Shown: piece after piece, positions 1,937-8,635 of the stretch | Layout: each line of letters starts with the position of its first letter | Position numbering within the stretch: the stretch's first letter is position 1 | Assembly: GCF_009857645.1 (NCBI RefSeq) | Contig: NZ_WWCW01000029.1 | Length of the DNA stretch: 24,000 nt | Reading direction: 5' to 3' (one strand) | Source of the DNA: Duganella vulcania | GTDB lineage: Bacteria; Pseudomonadota; Gammaproteobacteria; Burkholderiales; Burkholderiaceae_D | Notes under the pieces: model-generated | The model's database searches: none | Told to the model about the DNA's origin: nothing | The model's input: the letters and a program-made list of their open reading frames with translations, nothing else | Program-made: the position numbers and the translations under genes

Positions 1937-2248
1937 TCAGGGCGAATTTGTCTTCAGCCAGTCGCGCAAGGCCTCGTTCATGCGTGCCTGCCAACCGTCT
2001 CCCGTGGCCTTGAAGACGGCGACGATGTCAGCGTCGACAAGCATAGTCAGTGATTGCTGTGGAGTGATTCGCGCGGGCTTGCTGTTGCGGATAGCCTCTT
2101 CGGCGGCTATGGCAAATTCCTTCTTCGTGACGACTCGGTCGCCTATCATCGGCGTCGCGTTTTCAAAGAAATCGTCGGTCAATTCAGGCGCGTCGTCCGG
2201 GTCAATCCACGTGTCGCGTGTAGCGTTTGATTTCACGTTCATTTGCAT
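1937..2248 (-). CDS. brnA: BrnA-family type II antitoxin, orphaned
   Basis: 103 aa. The N-terminal acidic WIDPDDAPELTDDFFENA segment and the C-terminal LTMLVDADIVAVFKATGDGWQARMNEALRDWLK segment match the BrnA pattern as I remember it (...RLD.DVL.WFK..G.GYQTRIN..LR..). The start may be the ATG at 2248 or 2242, or the GTG at 2236. It overlaps the 3' end of the brnT remnant, as in brnTA operons. Confidence 0.8.
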   Translation of the reverse strand: MQMNVKSNATRDTWIDPDDAPELTDDFFENATPMIGDRVVTKKEFAIAAEEAIRNSKPARITPQQSLTMLVDADIVAVFKATGDGWQARMNEALRDWLKTNSP

Positions 2249-2454: not shown

Positions 2455-2907
2455 ATGAGAAAAAATTCGCTAACTGCTTCTACCGATACCTACTCCACAA
2501 GGGCAGCTGCCCGTATTTCTGGACTAAGCATCGATATGGTGAACTACCTGCACAGGCATGGGATTGTTCGAACTACTCCAGAAGACAGAACAGGCAGAGG
2601 TGTCGCCAGAGGCTATCGTTATGCTGATTTACTGCTGTTGCGTTTACTTTCAAGATTACTGGATCAAGGGATCTCAGTCCTGCGTCTGAGGAAGTGCTTG
2701 GTTGCTTTTCAAAAGCGTGGAGAAGATTTGACCTTGCTGACGTCGAAACGTTTTGTTGCCACTGACGGGCAGGAGGTCTATTTTGGAAGCCGCGACGTTT
2801 TGGAAAAATTGGGGACTGGGCAAATGGCTTTTGCATTTGTGCTTGAGCTCGGGGCACTCGGAAGTGAAGTGCGGGCCAGGATTTCCATTGAGAGCCGGGC
2901 AGCTTAG
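2455..2907 (+). CDS. MerR-family HTH transcriptional regulator with a C-terminal domain I cannot assign
   Basis: 150 aa. YSTRAAARISGLSIDMVNYLHRHGIV is followed by RGYRYADLLLLRLLSRLLDQGISVLRLRKCL. This fits the MerR layout of HTH, then wing (R.Y), then helix (G.s...i...L). The ATG is the first codon after an in-frame TAG. Confidence 0.8.
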   Translation: MRKNSLTASTDTYSTRAAARISGLSIDMVNYLHRHGIVRTTPEDRTGRGVARGYRYADLLLLRLLSRLLDQGISVLRLRKCLVAFQKRGEDLTLLTSKRFVATDGQEVYFGSRDVLEKLGTGQMAFAFVLELGALGSEVRARISIESRAA

Positions 2908-2947
2908 CGCATCTACGTCTGCTGTAGCGTAAGGATTGGTAGACATC

Positions 2948-2984
2948 GTAAGCGAGTAAAATGGTCGTGTACCATACTCGTTAC
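2948..2984 (+). promoter_or_regulatory. composite inverted repeat, either an operator or a hairpin ending the MerR-like gene transcript
   Basis: Sequence is GTAAGCGAGTA-AA-ATGGT-cgtgt-ACCAT-ACTCGTTAC. The inner 5-bp arms are perfect. The outer arms pair over about 9 bp with one bulged G. No T-run follows the structure. It lies between the MerR-like stop (2907) and the next start (3028). Confidence 0.4.
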
Positions 2985-3027
2985 ATGGCAGCCGGAGCTG
3001 ACCTGGGCTAATAGTTGGGAGGCATTC

Positions 3028-3753
3028 GTGGGCAAGCAGTGTCATCTGAATCATGCACCGATTGTTGAGGCGTTAATTGATATTCAATTTGCGCCTGTGG
3101 CTGACATGGATATGTCGGCTATTGCCGTTGAACTCTCAACAGGAAAGAGTGCATCGATTTCCGATCTTTTCGAAACTTTGTTTGAGTTGCGAGTGGACGA
3201 TGATGCGTTACCTTACTCTTCCAGCAGCGGGAAACGGCTTGATTTTGGTGTAGAGCATAGAGTTATTCAAATACGTAGTAATAGCTTTACGTTCAGCAAA
3301 TTGGCCCCATATGATACATGGGAAGAAATGCTTGAGCCGATGCTCGTCGCTTGGCAACATTTCCTGAAATACCTTGGGACAGGCACGATCAATCGTGTCG
3401 CGTTGCGCTATATAAATGTGCTGGAGCTACCGCTTCCATTAGATAGCTTCGACCGCTATCTCACTTCTCCACCTCAAGTCCCCCAAGGTCTTCAGCAGGG
3501 CATTTCCGGCTTTCTTACCCGGGTCTTATGCCCGTTAAAAGAAGATTTGTTGATCATCACGCAGTCACTGGAACGGGAGGCTAGTGATAATTCTGCTGTC
3601 AAAGTCGCCCTCGATATCGAGGTTTCGCATGAACATCAACTTGACCGCTCGGATGTTGCAGCACTTAATCTGGTTTTGAACCGGCTGCGAGCGGCAAAAA
3701 ATGATGCATTCTTTGCTTACCTTACTGACGATGCATTGGAACTCTTCAAATGA
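3028..3753 (+). CDS. TIGR04255-like family protein of unknown function
   Basis: 241 aa. GTG start is preceded by GGGAGG (3017-3022) with a 5-nt spacer. The N-terminal HAPIVEALIDIQF and the central NRVALRYINVLELP match my recollection of the TIGR04255 signature (nAPL.Ea..e.rF ... R.GLRYiN.i). This needs HMM confirmation. Confidence 0.8.
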   Translation: MGKQCHLNHAPIVEALIDIQFAPVADMDMSAIAVELSTGKSASISDLFETLFELRVDDDALPYSSSSGKRLDFGVEHRVIQIRSNSFTFSKLAPYDTWEEMLEPMLVAWQHFLKYLGTGTINRVALRYINVLELPLPLDSFDRYLTSPPQVPQGLQQGISGFLTRVLCPLKEDLLIITQSLEREASDNSAVKVALDIEVSHEHQLDRSDVAALNLVLNRLRAAKNDAFFAYLTDDALELFK

Positions 3754-4202
3754 ACTATATCTCTGGTTTCGTTTCCCATATCCAGCCTCAGACACAGGCC
3801 GCCAGTGATGTGGCACAGGAGGTAGAGCGTACAAGTCGTCGAGTGATTGCGAACGTGAAGCTCGGTTCTCCCGGTCGTTCGCGGCCAATGGAGGAACTTA
3901 CTGCTGTCGCAAATGCCCATGGAATGTTGAGTACATTTCCTGGATTGGCTACGTATGAACGAGCAGCGCGTTTCTTGACCGTCCTGCCTCTGTCGGCTTC
4001 TCTACCTGAAATATCGATTGACCCTGATGGAGAAGTTGCCTTTGACTGGGTTGTGGATGACAACATGCTTTCTGTGAGCCTTGGCGCGTCAGGACAGCTT
4101 TCTTTTGCTGCGGATGTCGAAGGAAAAATATCTTCTGGTGCGGCTTTCTTTGGTGCTGTGCTGCCAGATGAGCTCTCTTCGGTGCTGGATAATTTCGGAT
4201 AA
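3750..4202 (+). CDS. hypothetical protein, 150 aa, no recognised family
   Basis: The ATG at 3750 overlaps the upstream TGA (ATGA at 3750-3753), which suggests translational coupling. The C-terminal ~90 aa looks like a small beta-rich domain (LPEISIDPDGEVAFDWVVDDNMLSVSLGASGQLSFAADVEG). An alternative start at Met47 (3888) lacks an SD. Confidence 0.65.
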   Translation: MNYISGFVSHIQPQTQAASDVAQEVERTSRRVIANVKLGSPGRSRPMEELTAVANAHGMLSTFPGLATYERAARFLTVLPLSASLPEISIDPDGEVAFDWVVDDNMLSVSLGASGQLSFAADVEGKISSGAAFFGAVLPDELSSVLDNFG

Positions 4203-4205
4203 ATC

Positions 4206-4610
4206 GTGGCCGATCTGGAGAACATAGTTGTTTCTAACGATGAGCCGGCGACGCGATTCATTTATGACTCCGATAAGATTTTTCAGAACGGAAGCGTTAA
4301 ACCTGCTGCTTTTTTGCCTACGCCAGATAAGACTTCAGGTAGATTGGAAACTTCGATATGTCGCATAAAGGACTGCACCGAAGAACGCATATGGCACTTG
4401 GCGAAGACGCAGCGTCAGGATAAGACAGTCAAGGGGCGTGCGGACCATTCTGTTCAGTCAGCACATGACGCTGGGTTGGAGTGCATTGCGGCACCTGTTA
4501 CGGATTTCCCTGAGCATGCTGTTCTTTTAGGATGGCCGGCAGATAAGCCAGCATGTAAGGTGATCGCGATGATGCTCTCAAAAGCAAGCAAGGGTGTGCT
4601 TGCTCCCTAA
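4206..4610 (+). CDS. hypothetical protein, 134 aa, no recognised family
   Basis: The GTG start is 3 nt after the upstream TAA. The sequence is protein-like, with RFIYDSDKIFQNGSVKPAAFLP, GRLETSICR and PEHAVLLGWPADKPACKVIAMMLSKAS. There is no internal ATG until near the C-terminus. The TAA stop at 4608-4610 shares bases with the LysR stop on the other strand. Confidence 0.65.
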   Translation: MADLENIVVSNDEPATRFIYDSDKIFQNGSVKPAAFLPTPDKTSGRLETSICRIKDCTEERIWHLAKTQRQDKTVKGRADHSVQSAHDAGLECIAAPVTDFPEHAVLLGWPADKPACKVIAMMLSKASKGVLAP

Positions 4611-5554
4611 CGGGGCAATGGTTCATCCACGGACAATTCCCTTGCTATTTCTTGCTCCCGCGCCTCATCGCGCAGGAAGTCCGAGAACCACGCCAGCGCC
4701 TCCTGCTCGGTGCGGGTGGGGCGCCAGCACATGTAGTAGGCGCCCTGTGTCGACAGCGTCTGGCTGAAGGGACTGACCAAGGTCCCGCGCCGCAGGTCGT
4801 CGCGGATCAGCGCCATGCGGCCCAGCGCGATGCCCTGGCCGTTCAGCGCCGCCTGCATCAGCGCGTTGCTGTCGTCGATCAGCGGCCCGCGCAGCGCCAG
4901 CGACGGCGCCAAACCCGCCTGCTCGAACCAGCGTTCCCAATCGTCGCAGCTGTCCTCGTGCAGCAGCGTGTAGTGCGCCAGATCGGACGGCTCCAGCAAC
5001 GGCGGGCCGTCCTTCAACAGCGCCGGTGAACACACCGGCAGCAGCTCGGTGCCGAACAGGCGCTCGCACTCCACGCCCGGCCACTTGCCATCGCCCCACC
5101 GTATCGCCAGGTCGATGCTGTCGCGACCCAGGTCGGTATGCATCACCGTATGCACCAGCCGCACCTCAAGCTGGCTATGCGCCGCCAGAAAACGGTCCAG
5201 CCGATGCACCAGCCAGCGCGAGCTGAAGGCCGGCGTCACCGCCACCGTCAGCCGCCTGCGCGCGCGGCCCTCGCCCTGCGCCAGCTGCGCCAGCACGCGG
5301 TCGATGCGGCCGAAGGCGTCGACCAGGCTGCGCTGCAAAATCGCGCCTTCGCCGGTCAGCGTGATGGCCCGCGTCATGCGCTTGAACAGCTTGATCTGCA
5401 GCGCCTCCTCGAGCGTCTTGATCTGGTGGCTGACCGCCGCCTGCGAAATGCACAACTCATCGGCGGCACGGGTAAAACTCATGTGCCGCGCCGTGACTTC
5501 AAACGTTTTCAACTGCCGTAACAGACTGGAAGAATGAACCAAGGCGCTCTCCAT
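4607..5554 (-). CDS. LysR-family transcriptional regulator, GcvA-like
   Basis: 315 aa. The N-terminal HTH reads LRQLKTFEVTARHMSFTRAADELCISQAAVSHQIKTLEE. The protein is colinear with E. coli GcvA as I recall it (…LLPVCSP…, …TLLH…, …GQG(I/V)AL…). It is divergently transcribed from the gcvPA/PB-like operon. Confidence 0.92.
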   Translation of the reverse strand: MESALVHSSSLLRQLKTFEVTARHMSFTRAADELCISQAAVSHQIKTLEEALQIKLFKRMTRAITLTGEGAILQRSLVDAFGRIDRVLAQLAQGEGRARRRLTVAVTPAFSSRWLVHRLDRFLAAHSQLEVRLVHTVMHTDLGRDSIDLAIRWGDGKWPGVECERLFGTELLPVCSPALLKDGPPLLEPSDLAHYTLLHEDSCDDWERWFEQAGLAPSLALRGPLIDDSNALMQAALNGQGIALGRMALIRDDLRRGTLVSPFSQTLSTQGAYYMCWRPTRTEQEALAWFSDFLRDEAREQEIARELSVDEPLPR

Positions 5555-5586
5555 GCATGAATTTTTCTAATGTATCGCATGCATAC
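5550..5586. promoter_or_regulatory. candidate LysR/GcvA operator
   Basis: Sequence is CCATGCATGAATTTTTCTAATGTATCGCATGCATA. Imperfect inverted arms TGCATGAAT and ATCGCATGCA flank a CTAAT core at 5567-5571. It sits at the 5' end of the LysR gene, in the divergent intergenic region. Confidence 0.4.
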
Positions 5587-5654
5587 TGATCATTTGTCAA
5601 TGTTATTTCGCTCCTACAAGATGGGGTATCCATCCCCGATCAACAGGAAATGAC

Positions 5655-7052
5655 ATGGAACCTGGCAAACCCTTTATCCACCCCTACATCCCCAACTCGG
5701 TGCCCGCCGTGCGCGAGGCCATGCTGCGCGCCGTGGGCGCCGCCAGCACCGAGGACTTCTTCGCCGACATCCCCGTCGCGCTGCGCATGCAGGCGCCGCT
5801 GGCGATCGCCGCGCCGCACCTGTCGGAGGCGCGCCTCAAGCGCCACGTGGACGGCCTGCTGCGCAAGAACAGCCACTGCGCCGGGCAGCTCAGCTTCCTG
5901 GGCGGCGGCTGCTACCAGCATCACGTGCCGGCCGTTTGCGACGAGATCAACGGCCGCAGCGAGTTCGCCACCGCCTACGCCGGCGAACCGTACGACGACC
6001 ATGGCCGCTTCCAGGCGCTGTTCGAATACTGCAGCATGATGGGCGCGCTGCTGGAGATGGACGTGGTCAACGTGCCGGTGTACGACGGCATGCAGGCCGC
6101 CGCCACCGCCGTGCGCATGGCGGGCCGCCACACCGGCCGGCGCCGTGTGGTGGTCGCCGGCCACGTCAACCCGGACAAGCTGTCCATGATGAACACCTAC
6201 GGCCGCGCCGATCTCGATTTCATCACCGCGCCGTTCGATCCGGCCACCGGCCTGCTGGACCTGGCCAAGGTCAAGCGCCTGCTCGACCAGGACACCGCCG
6301 CGCTGTACGTCGACATCCCATCCTTCCTCGGCACCATCGACGACGGCGCCGCGCTGGCCGCCGCCGCGCATGCGGTGGGCGCGTTGTTCGTGGTGGGCGT
6401 CGATCCGGTGTCGCTGGGCGTGCTGGCGCCGCCGGCCAGTTACGGCGCCGACATCGTCTGCGGCGACATCCAGCCACTCGGCATGCACATGAACTACGGC
6501 GGCGGCCAGGGCGGCTTCATCGCCAGCCATGACGATCCCGCCATCGTCATGCAGTATCCATCGCGGCTGTTCGGCATCGTGCCCACCAGCGTGCCGGGCG
6601 AGTACGGCTTCGGCGACGTGGCCTATAGCCGCACCTCGTTCGACAAGCGCGAGAACGGCAACGAATTCGTCGGCACCGCGGCCGCGCTGTGGGGCATCAC
6701 GGCGGGCGTGTACCTGGCGCTGATGGGACCACAAGGCATGACCGAACTGGCCACCGGCATCGTCCAGCGCACCGCCTATGCCAGGCAGCGCATGGCGCGC
6801 ATCCCCGGCGTGCGGATCGCGCACGCGGGCAGCTGCCACTTCCGCGAGTTCGCCGTCAACTTCGACGGCACCGGCCTGCCGGTGGCCGCCGTCAACGCCG
6901 CCTTGCTGCAGCAGGGCGTCTTCGGCGGCCATGACCTGAGCGCCGCCTTCCCCGCGCTGGGCCAGTCGGCCTTGTACGCCTTTTCCGAAGTCCACACGCA
7001 GGAAGACATCGACCTGCTGTGCGCAACGCTAGAGAAAGTCCTCCAACAATGA
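5655..7052 (+). CDS. gcvPA: glycine dehydrogenase (aminomethyl-transferring) subunit 1-like protein, divergent GcvPA paralog
   Basis: 465 aa. The N-terminal HPYIPNSVPAVREAMLRAVG and FADIP, and the segments ALFEYCSMMGALLEMDVVNVPVYDGMQAAATAVRMA and GADIVCGDIQPLG, follow the GcvPA layout. AGGAAA lies 5 nt upstream of the ATG. Confidence 0.85.
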   Translation: MEPGKPFIHPYIPNSVPAVREAMLRAVGAASTEDFFADIPVALRMQAPLAIAAPHLSEARLKRHVDGLLRKNSHCAGQLSFLGGGCYQHHVPAVCDEINGRSEFATAYAGEPYDDHGRFQALFEYCSMMGALLEMDVVNVPVYDGMQAAATAVRMAGRHTGRRRVVVAGHVNPDKLSMMNTYGRADLDFITAPFDPATGLLDLAKVKRLLDQDTAALYVDIPSFLGTIDDGAALAAAAHAVGALFVVGVDPVSLGVLAPPASYGADIVCGDIQPLGMHMNYGGGQGGFIASHDDPAIVMQYPSRLFGIVPTSVPGEYGFGDVAYSRTSFDKRENGNEFVGTAAALWGITAGVYLALMGPQGMTELATGIVQRTAYARQRMARIPGVRIAHAGSCHFREFAVNFDGTGLPVAAVNAALLQQGVFGGHDLSAAFPALGQSALYAFSEVHTQEDIDLLCATLEKVLQQ

Positions 7053-8635
7053 ACGCCATGGAAAACATCGCCCACCACCGCAAGCAGCAGATGCGCCGCT
7101 ACCACCAGGCGCGCTGGGACGAACCGGTCATCTTTGAACTGAGCCAGCCCGGCGAACGCGGCATCCTGGTGCCGGAAGTGGAGCCGGACATCGTGCGTGC
7201 AGCAGGCCAGCCGCTGGCCGGGCTGCCCGCCGCCATGCTGCGCCAGCGCGCGCCGGCGCTGCCGGAGATGTCGCAGAACCGCGTGCTGCGCCACTACCTG
7301 CGCCTGTCGCAGGAGACGCTGGGCGCGGACCTCAACGTCGACGTGGGGCAGGGCACCTGCACCATGAAGTACAACCCCAAGATCAACGACCAGCTAGCGC
7401 GCCAACCCGGCATGGCGGAGCTGCATCCGCGCCAGCCCGACAGCACCGTGCAAGGCATGCTGGAGGTGATGGACAAGCTGGAAGGCGTGCTGCGCGAAGT
7501 GTCGGGCATGGATGCCGTATCGCTGCAGGCGCGCGGCGGATCGCAGGCCATCTTCGCCAACATGGCGATGGTGCGCGCCTGGCACGAGAGCCGTGGCGAA
7601 GCGGATCGGCGCGATGAAGTCATCACCACCATCTTCTCGCACCCGTCGGACGCCGCCTGCGCCAAGCTGGCCGGCTACCGGGTCATCACGCTCTACCCGG
7701 ACGCGAACGGCTACCCGGACCTGGAGGCGTTGAAGGCGGCCGTGTCGCCGCGCACGGCGGCGCTGGTGATCACCAATCCGGAGGACACCGGCATCTTCAA
7801 TAGCCGCATCCGCGAATTCGTCGACGTGGTGCACGCGGCCGGCGGCTTGTGTGTGTACGACCAGGCCAACGCCAACGGCCTGCTGGGCATCGCCCGCGCG
7901 CGCGAGGCGGGCTTCGACCTGTGCCACTTCAACCTGCACAAGACCTTCGCCACGCCGCACGCCTGCGGCGGCCCGGCGGTCGGCGCGGTGTGCTGCACGG
8001 CGGCGCTGGCGCCGTTCCTGCCCGGCCCCCTGGTGCGGCACAAGGACGGCCGCTACACGCTGGTGGATGGCGCGGCGCAGTCGATCGGCAAGATCAGCAG
8101 CTTCACCGGCACCGCCTCCATCATGCTGCGCGCCTATGCGTGGATCATGAACCTGGGCGCCGAGGGCTTGCGCACCGTGTCCGAGATCGCGGTCCTGAAC
8201 AACAACTACATGATGCACGAGCTGCTGAAGATCAACGGCATGGCCGCGCCCTACGCGGCGGGCAAGCGCCGCATCGAGCAGGTGCGCTACAGCTGGGCGG
8301 GCCTCACCGAGGCAACCGGCGTGACGTCGGAGGAAATCGGCCTGCGCGCCGCCGACTTCGGCGTGCATTACTGGACCAGCCACCATCCCTACGTGGTGCC
8401 GGAGCCGGCCACCATCGAGCCGACCGAATCCTATTCGCGCGCCGACCTCGATGAATTCATCGGCGTGATGCGCCACATCGCCGGCGAAGCGCACAGCGAT
8501 CCGGACCTGGTCAAGACCGCGCCGCACAACTGCCCGGTGCACCGCGTGCAGGGCGAGATGCTGGACGATCCGGAGCGCTGGTCCATCACCTGGCGCGCCT
8601 ACCAACGCAAGCTGGGCGAGCGCGGGCTGGCATGA
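7049..8635 (+). CDS. gcvPB: glycine dehydrogenase subunit 2-like PLP enzyme, divergent GcvPB paralog
   Basis: I chose the ATG at 7049, which forms an ATGA overlap with the upstream stop at 7050-7052, rather than the track start at 7019. Supporting segments are EPVIFELSQPGERG and the PLP-lysine motif NLHKTF. The following loop reads PHACGGPAVG instead of the canonical PHGGGGPG. Confidence 0.85.
   Translation: MNAMENIAHHRKQQMRRYHQARWDEPVIFELSQPGERGILVPEVEPDIVRAAGQPLAGLPAAMLRQRAPALPEMSQNRVLRHYLRLSQETLGADLNVDVGQGTCTMKYNPKINDQLARQPGMAELHPRQPDSTVQGMLEVMDKLEGVLREVSGMDAVSLQARGGSQAIFANMAMVRAWHESRGEADRRDEVITTIFSHPSDAACAKLAGYRVITLYPDANGYPDLEALKAAVSPRTAALVITNPEDTGIFNSRIREFVDVVHAAGGLCVYDQANANGLLGIARAREAGFDLCHFNLHKTFATPHACGGPAVGAVCCTAALAPFLPGPLVRHKDGRYTLVDGAAQSIGKISSFTGTASIMLRAYAWIMNLGAEGLRTVSEIAVLNNNYMMHELLKINGMAAPYAAGKRRIEQVRYSWAGLTEATGVTSEEIGLRAADFGVHYWTSHHPYVVPEPATIEPTESYSRADLDEFIGVMRHIAGEAHSDPDLVKTAPHNCPVHRVQGEMLDDPERWSITWRAYQRKLGERGLA

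Follow-up and report, generated by a model that had tools for sequence, protein, structure and literature searches.

In a 24,000-nt stretch of DNA from Duganella vulcania contig NZ_WWCW01000029.1 (referred to throughout as the window), a cassette of three small genes, labelled g2, g3 and g4, is located at positions 3028-4610 on the plus strand. The products of these genes and of the upstream gene merR show 100% identity to database entries for this strain, which is also listed as Rugamonas sp. FT82W. The first gene, g2 (3028-3753), encodes a 241-aa protein of the TIGR04255 family and is the constant first gene of the cassette. Its GTG start codon lies 5 nt downstream of a Shine-Dalgarno sequence (GGGAGG, 3017-3022), and an ATGA overlap (3750-3753) joins it to g3 (3750-4202), which encodes a 150-aa putative neutraliser or adaptor. 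A spacer of 3 nt (4203-4205) separates the g3 stop codon from the GTG start of g4 (4206-4610), whose 134-aa product is the proposed effector or toxin. Upstream on the same strand is merR (2455-2907), encoding a 150-aa protein with a MerR-family helix-turn-helix (HTH) domain, which is outside the conserved system and is separated from g2 by an intergenic gap of 120 nt (2908-3027). The original prediction for this locus had described four same-strand open reading frames (ORFs), the strong Shine-Dalgarno sequence before the GTG at 3028, the overlap and the short spacer; the ORF listing contained all four genes at these positions, and the start and both junctions were read directly in the sequence. 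The claim of foreign composition was also borne out. From merR through g4 the GC content is 0.47-0.51, compared to 0.68 for a GST gene, 0.665 for lysR and 0.666 for the remaining window. This ~2.2-kb low-GC islet, including the cassette, was most likely acquired horizontally; no tRNA, integrase or transposase was found within or adjoining it.

The g2 protein matches the TIGR04255 profile over its full length (E=1.9e-27, 96.7 bits versus a cut-off of 30, with residues 7-241 aligned to positions 2-252 of 252), and NCBI likewise names it a TIGR04255 family protein, in agreement with the earlier guess about its family. TIGR04255 is an NCBI-curated family without a known function and was mentioned in no paper of a full-text collection of 8 million. 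Using a g2 motif to scan one genome per species, we collected 248 relatives and kept the best 80 loci, which were searched with hidden Markov models (HMMs) for g3 and g4. The order g2-g3-g4 was seen at 61 of the 74 genome loci with enough downstream sequence; at 2/74 the gene after g3 was decayed or divergent, and at 11/74 another gene pair followed the TIGR04255 gene. A reciprocal scan of metagenomes starting from a g3 motif gave 38 loci, with g2 directly upstream in all 37 that had upstream sequence and g4 present at every locus with downstream room. The junction between g2 and the second gene is also conserved, at -4 nt for 67/81 loci and -1 nt for another 6/81. The hosts belong to at least 15 phyla, including Burkholderiales and other Proteobacteria, Nitrospirota, Planctomycetota, Bacteroidota, Gemmatimonadota and Chloroflexota as well as Acidobacteriota, Verrucomicrobiota, Spirochaetota, Cloacimonadota, Nitrospinota and Cyanobacteria. 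That g2, g3 and g4 are real genes is evident from homologues in the same order at >100 other loci. Co-occurrence of the 241-, 150- and 134-aa proteins, without which the original prediction was not meant to stand, was thus observed whether the search was anchored on g2 or on g3, and none of the profile or fold searches assigned the operon proteins to a housekeeping family. The trio is a true operon that occurs widely, is inherited sporadically and stays together as a unit.

These data identify a functional unit of three genes, not four. The original prediction had included merR as a dedicated regulator and had pointed to a composite palindrome in the 120-nt gap, which together would make a four-gene unit with a palindromic operator. 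The merR product does carry a MerR_1 HTH at residues 13-80 (E=9.1e-7, 29.3 bits versus the Pfam cut-off of 21.6) and is named "MerR family transcriptional regulator" by NCBI (WP_161096826); the ~70 C-terminal residues are unassigned, and no significant solved relative of the protein was found. Its orientation, its position 120 nt upstream of g2 and its equally low GC content are all consistent with a four-gene unit, and read-through from merR into the cassette is possible because a promoter scan found no consensus promoter, sigma-70 included, in the gap. However, a jackhmmer search across 90 related cassette loci recovered no MerR homologue other than the window copy, and we rejected MerR as a conserved regulator. 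The only other copy was in L095, a metagenome contig that is 95% identical over merR and both flanks. The arrangement is therefore kept within Duganella, but L095 represents the same insertion in the same lineage and is not independent evidence for a link between merR and the operon. The "composite palindrome" was not sustained either. The gap contains a single inverted repeat with perfect 5-bp arms (ATGGT N5 ACCAT, 2961-2975), which is at chance level given that at least one such repeat occurred in 343 of 500 shuffled sequences, and a repeat finder reported none in the gap. The genes upstream of the cassette also vary among lineages, with a 98-aa gene without a known family in L001 and a DUF2058 gene in L006. 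This DUF2058 gene (E=1.8e-63; L006 4342-4878, L007 974-1510) takes the position of merR in the closest non-Duganella relatives, showing that upstream genes are not conserved. We conclude that merR is either a passenger at this locus or a regulator restricted to this lineage, where at most it would control transcription, and consider the four-gene unit unlikely.

A second feature of the family is that the genes following TIGR04255 can be replaced. The cassette in the window has the common layout, with a TIGR04255 gene followed by two small same-strand genes and an overlapping first junction. At other loci, TIGR04255 is followed by a 143-aa protein and DUF7689 (E=1.2e-44), by a ~130-aa protein and a Fic/DOC protein (E=4.3e-10, motif HPFINGNGRTSR), or by pairs without an assigned family (97 aa and ~175 aa; 178 aa and ~200 aa). 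A Vibrio parahaemolyticus plasmid carries TIGR04255 with a 179-aa protein and a zeta toxin (Pfam E=3.1e-12; annotated as "zeta toxin family"), and a Crinalium plasmid carries TIGR04255 with yet another pair. The same three-gene layout extends to distant TIGR04255 members with 23-28% identity, one encoding proteins of 252, 186 and 127 aa beside HsdR, with two more layouts of 251 and 220 (plus 147) aa and of 243 and 162 aa followed by DUF7689. A rough neighbour-joining tree of g2 grouped the subfamilies largely by partner type. This largely clade-specific distribution indicates that g2 diversifies together with its pair and that pairs are occasionally exchanged. TIGR04255 is the constant part; the two genes behind it are replaced jointly. 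Fic/Doc and zeta proteins are classical toxin enzymes, each normally preceded by a protein antitoxin. Their presence in the third position suggests that this is the effector or toxin slot, and that the second position would be the slot of the cognate partner.

Neither g3 nor g4 matched a Pfam, NCBIfam or PHROGs family, and profile searches of the PDB with narrow and broad alignments returned noise or designed helical proteins only. Alignments of g3 show a conserved C-terminal domain with the consensus WDGYGAxP...PEIxxEPDGEIxFEW, and the family comprises 3301 metagenome cluster representatives at E<=1e-3. As is typical for type II toxin-antitoxin (TA) systems, g3 and g4 are small neighbouring genes on the same strand that are inherited jointly. 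A recognised toxin family combined with an antitoxin or DNA-binding domain was not detected for g3 and g4 in Pfam, NCBIfam or the PDB, and it is only the sister operons that carry Fic, zeta or DUF7689.

Across 49 g4 sequences, the only invariant residues are P38, S50 and H104; R17 is nearly invariant, and W63 and W110 are also conserved. The AlphaFold2 model of g4 is confident (predicted local distance difference test (pLDDT) 91.7). Its best PDB matches, none of which was significant, were to Tpt1/KptA (9lda_A, E=0.17, probability 0.77, query TM-score (TMq) 0.44), with further weak matches to 8tfi, 8tfz, 9ldg and 9ldc (Tpt1/KptA) and to 1s21 (AvrPphF); a baculovirus RNA 2'-phosphotransferase recurred among the weak matches in BFVD. 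AvrPphF and Tpt1/KptA are proteins of the ADP-ribosyltransferase (ART) fold, so that ART-like chemistry is a lead for g4, suggested by the model, rather than a finding. No sequence match of g4 to ART, RES or Tpt1 families was found. From an alignment of 15 sequences and the strands of the model, we had considered R17-S50-E103 as an ART triad, but rejected this candidate since position 103 is Arg in most of the 49 homologues.

The pattern of g4 loss is informative. The gene is frameshifted, truncated or a remnant at five loci (L047, L064, L009, L010 and L033), all with an intact g3. At no locus collected did g4 occur without g3, and the two genes are adjacent in all loci. The decay of g4 beside an intact g3, with g4 never alone, is consistent with a toxin whose loss is tolerated but which is not carried without protection. 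Two variants of the cassette were also observed. In L090 (6011-7219), a 403-aa protein begins with a g4 domain (HMM positions 9-116, E=3e-23) and continues into a C-terminal part of ~280 aa without a family, possibly an effector fusion that hints at the target or activity of g4. In the Gemmatimonadota loci L008-L010 (~5900-6900; P0032, P0037), the cassette is decaying: the initial ~26 codons of TIGR04255 run in frame into g3, g4 keeps its full length in L008 but not in L009 and L010, where it is truncated, and a 5'-3' exonuclease gene overlaps the g2 start.

For g2, an alignment of 74 diverse sequences showed seven invariant residues (P11, E14, Y95, R127, N130, D196 and F228) and 11 near-invariant residues, mostly polar or aromatic and on beta strands, which suggests a pocket or active site. 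The AlphaFold2 model (pLDDT 91.9) has two beta-alpha-beta(n)-alpha lobes by the order of elements in DSSP, possibly corresponding to the saddle topology of TATA-binding protein (TBP). No PDB match at E<=0.001 was found for this model using Foldseek, and the sequence matched no Pfam family, SecB included. The top Foldseek matches, all non-significant, include the triphosphate-tunnel enzymes Pct1 (E=6.9e-3) and YgiF, which carry no weight given a root-mean-square deviation (rmsd) of ~20 A and a probability of <=0.25. A profile match to PDB 9hnh_A (E=0.001) was rejected as a repeat artefact against a de novo designed solenoid. We also noted that g2 in the window is four residues shorter (around residues ~60-64) than its close 245-aa homologues, which are 78-92% identical, and that the missing residues map to the loop that is modelled least confidently.

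One candidate system in PADLOC, PDC-M32, resembles part of the cassette. The PDC systems are 145 experimentally untested candidates, chosen by "guilt-by-embedding" in BREX, DISARM and type I restriction-modification (RM) loci (bioRxiv 10.1101/2024.01.29.577857). For 54 of the 67 members of the g3 family, the core domain matches positions ~259-331 of the 375-position PDC-M32A profile, at best with E=1.2e-7, and g4-type proteins match PDC-M32B (123 positions) weakly (E=0.0046 for g4 in the window and 5.9e-4), with 5 of the 49 g4 family members matching. In both, the g3-like domain precedes the g4-like gene, and some of the cassettes described here adjoin type I RM genes. However, PDC-M32A is a single protein of ~375 positions, whereas here a separate, translationally coupled TIGR04255 gene takes the place of its N-terminal part. 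The N-terminal part of a 446-aa protein with a g3 domain (P0180) showed no similarity to the TIGR04255 alignment using hhalign. The locus in the window thus appears, from these profile matches, not to be a PDC-M32 member but a remote homologue, and a PADLOC call is not expected with E=0.0046 for g4. The cassette would be of a TA or defence kind, related to yet distinct from PDC-M32. The original prediction had called the system undescribed; this stands insofar as no described TIGR04255 system was found, and is qualified by the distant relationship of the g3/g4 pair to PDC-M32.

The genomic settings of the cassettes are varied. The families recurring most often in the 139 nearest neighbours were HsdS (5), RadC (4), ResIII (3), AAA_21 (3), N6_Mtase (2) and EcoEI_R_C (2). 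The neighbours represent 141 families, from which it follows that there is no conserved fourth gene. HsdR adjoins the cassette in L102, and a Ralstonia cassette is flanked by IS21, Mrr and a recombinase. IS66 remnants were also seen, and inspection of translations by eye suggested PIN/AbrB-like and RHH-like pairs. Two cassettes are in P2-like prophage settings, L093 (by record taxonomy; Ralstonia phage YO139_2, 380-2061) and L101 (2871-4512), where the adjacent genes resemble, again by eye, phage tail and lysis genes. A third (L100, 3947-5659) is on a provirus contig and has a Ralstonia-type cassette with an Mrr-like nuclease gene nearby by the same inspection. All three have TIGR04255 and a g3-like gene followed by a different third gene of ~146-156 aa with the motifs YRRV, PSV[DE]R and N.AHA. 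This third gene of the Ralstonia-phage type matches PDC-M32B better than g4 does. An hhalign comparison to g4 gave colinear R, SVxR and HA motifs at a non-significant E=0.08, and the two would be linked only through their weak matches to PDC-M32B. At L105 and L106 (~2500-8000), a distant TIGR04255 cassette is surrounded by a series of short genes without annotation, close to a MUG113/T5orf172-type gene, in a region that looks phage-derived. Collectively, the recurrent type I RM genes and, at individual loci, other TA pairs, prophage genes and insertion sequences agree with the defence-like context that had been claimed.

In the window itself, the left flank of the islet is formed by brnA (1937-2248, minus strand; GC 0.56), an intact antitoxin gene (Pfam BrnA_antitoxin, E=1.8e-19) that is outside the cassette and marks the left edge of the lower-GC stretch. 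Next to it at 2202-2380, also on the minus strand, is a remnant of what we take to be the brnT toxin gene, based on its position upstream of brnA and the C-terminal motif of the family. The last ~40-55 codons are left (...GTARRIISMRYANEREIKRY) and, in translation, a stop codon closes the frame upstream, such that no complete BrnTA pair is present at the left flank. An AT-rich junction (2331-2454, GC 0.41) extends from the brnT remnant to merR, has no ORF of at least 60 aa wholly inside, and probably represents both the left end of the insertion and the region upstream of merR. The cut in brnT coincides with the drop in GC content to 0.41, leaving brnA as an orphan antitoxin gene beside the inserted DNA; the insertion may have destroyed the toxin gene. 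The right end of the islet is flush with the stop codon of a convergent LysR gene. The g4 stop codon (4608-4610) overlaps the LysR stop codon (4607-4609), the GC content rises at that point from 0.50 to 0.665, and no terminator-like site was found between g4 and lysR in a promoter and terminator scan. The proposal that the genes sit inside a TA locus is thus accurate for the left side, which adjoins brnA and the brnT remnant. With LysR as the right neighbour, however, the islet is beside the TA locus rather than inside it.

On balance, we lean towards the reading that 3028-4610 is a three-component, TA-like conflict cassette, whose most likely function is abortive infection or phage defence, acquired horizontally in the low-GC islet. 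We infer the toxicity, neutralisation, trigger and defence role of the cassette. The g4 protein would be a small cytoplasmic enzyme with an ART/Tpt1-like fold and R17, S50 and H104 as candidate active-site residues, which might arrest growth through modification of nucleic acid or protein. The conserved C-terminal domain of g3 would bind g4 and thereby neutralise it. TIGR04255, made in a fixed ratio with g3 through the ATGA overlap, would act as a shared sensor or regulator, holding the pair inactive until phage infection or some other trigger sets the effector free. The upstream merR gene would be a local addition. The proposed role of g4 has a parallel in Tpt1/KptA and in ART toxins such as DarT of DarTG, given its small size, predicted cytoplasmic location, place in the toxin slot and weak model matches. 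It differs in that these matches are non-significant and that the conserved residues are R17, S50 and H104 instead of the H-Y-E or R-S-E triads or the R-H-R-R tetrad.

Several observations weigh against this conflict-cassette reading. The fold matches of g4 are weak (best E=0.17, TM 0.44), and in the 49-sequence alignment neither the classical ART triads nor the Tpt1 tetrad was found. No DNA-binding domain of the HTH or ribbon-helix-helix (RHH) type was recognised in g3, no known antitoxin family was matched by g2 or g3, and no significant structural relative of g2 was found in the PDB. The invariant polar residues of g2 point to a pocket for catalysis or ligand binding more than to a passive role, such that the assignment of roles could be wrong. 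The g3 protein of the window had no match to PDC-M32A, and TIGR04255 proteins never matched PDC-M32A, including its N-terminal ~250 positions. Finally, most cassette neighbours are ordinary genes, and the cassette is rare in curated collections (one phage record, two plasmids and five IMG/VR contigs); a tblastn search of phage and plasmid collections with g3-type proteins recovered the one Ralstonia record and no plasmid.

One alternative is a plain tripartite addiction-type TA system without a role in phage defence, in which TIGR04255 would be a DNA-binding autoregulator like omega in omega-epsilon-zeta. The autoregulator role falls to TIGR04255 in this scheme because the antitoxin-like g3 has no DNA-binding domain; Pfam shows neither an HTH nor an RHH domain in g3. 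There is a parallel with omega-epsilon-zeta and with toxin-antitoxin-chaperone (TAC) systems. All have three small genes that are transcribed together, with one partner that is neither toxin nor antitoxin, and one TIGR04255 sister operon ends in a zeta toxin. With zeta in third place on the Vibrio plasmid, the order regulator-antitoxin-toxin mirrors that of omega-epsilon-zeta. In TAC systems, one accessory protein (a SecB-like chaperone) serves several unrelated TA families, as TIGR04255 does with g3/g4, Fic, zeta and DUF7689. The lobes of the g2 model, if they are indeed a TBP-like saddle, and the absence of a consensus promoter or operator in the gap also count in favour of this alternative. 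However, TIGR04255 is neither SecB-like nor an omega-type RHH protein, has no Pfam or PDB match, and is the first gene of its operon with an overlap to the second, so the likeness is one of analogy and not homology. In addition, g2 matches no DNA-binding family or structure, and its E14, Y95, R127, N130 and D196 are more suggestive of a pocket than of a surface that binds DNA. The recurrent type I RM and prophage settings, the kinship with PDC-M32 and the rarity on plasmids all fit defence better than plasmid maintenance. We regard the addiction-only alternative as rather improbable.

A role for TIGR04255 as an active enzyme or generator of a nucleotide or small-molecule signal, with the downstream proteins as its regulators or signal-activated effectors as in cyclic-nucleotide defence signalling, would account for the conserved polar and aromatic residues of g2 on its beta strands, the appearance of Pct1 and YgiF among its non-significant fold matches and its constancy while effectors vary, but we consider it very unlikely, since those fold matches are worthless, profile searches detected no known nucleotide-cyclase or signalling motif, the pairs are swapped together and largely co-vary with g2 subfamilies, as is typical for cognate binding partners, and protein antitoxins, not small signals, normally keep Fic and zeta toxins in check (FicTA, epsilon-zeta).

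Returning to the conflict-cassette reading, we would tentatively extend it, at rather less than an even chance, to TIGR04255 as a whole. The family may represent a widespread class of three-component conflict systems, found described nowhere, in which a universal sensor or regulator, of unassigned fold, is combined with interchangeable neutraliser-effector pairs (those with Fic, zeta or DUF7689, three or more others without an assigned family, and g3/g4, whose g4 would be a new ART-like enzyme), and of which PDC-M32 could be a related variant with a different N-terminal part. The comparison is to Panacea (PanA), a hyperpromiscuous antitoxin domain of two-gene systems that is paired with many unrelated toxin families across phyla. 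TIGR04255 is likewise one family combined with many toxin families; unlike PanA, with which it shares no homology, it is a third component with a partner-specific middle gene.

The occurrence of TIGR04255 nearly always as the first gene of a coupled three-gene cassette with a swapped pair gives the family a testable role and links it to PDC-M32, and at 1.6 kb the cassette is a compact system with good experimental tractability. Should the model fail, strict co-inheritance across at least 15 phyla would still call for an explanation. If the model is correct, TIGR04255 would be a new promiscuous third component for TA and defence biology, g4 with its conserved R, S and H would define a new family of small effector enzymes, and g3 would define a new family of neutraliser domains with more than 3,000 metagenome sequence clusters.

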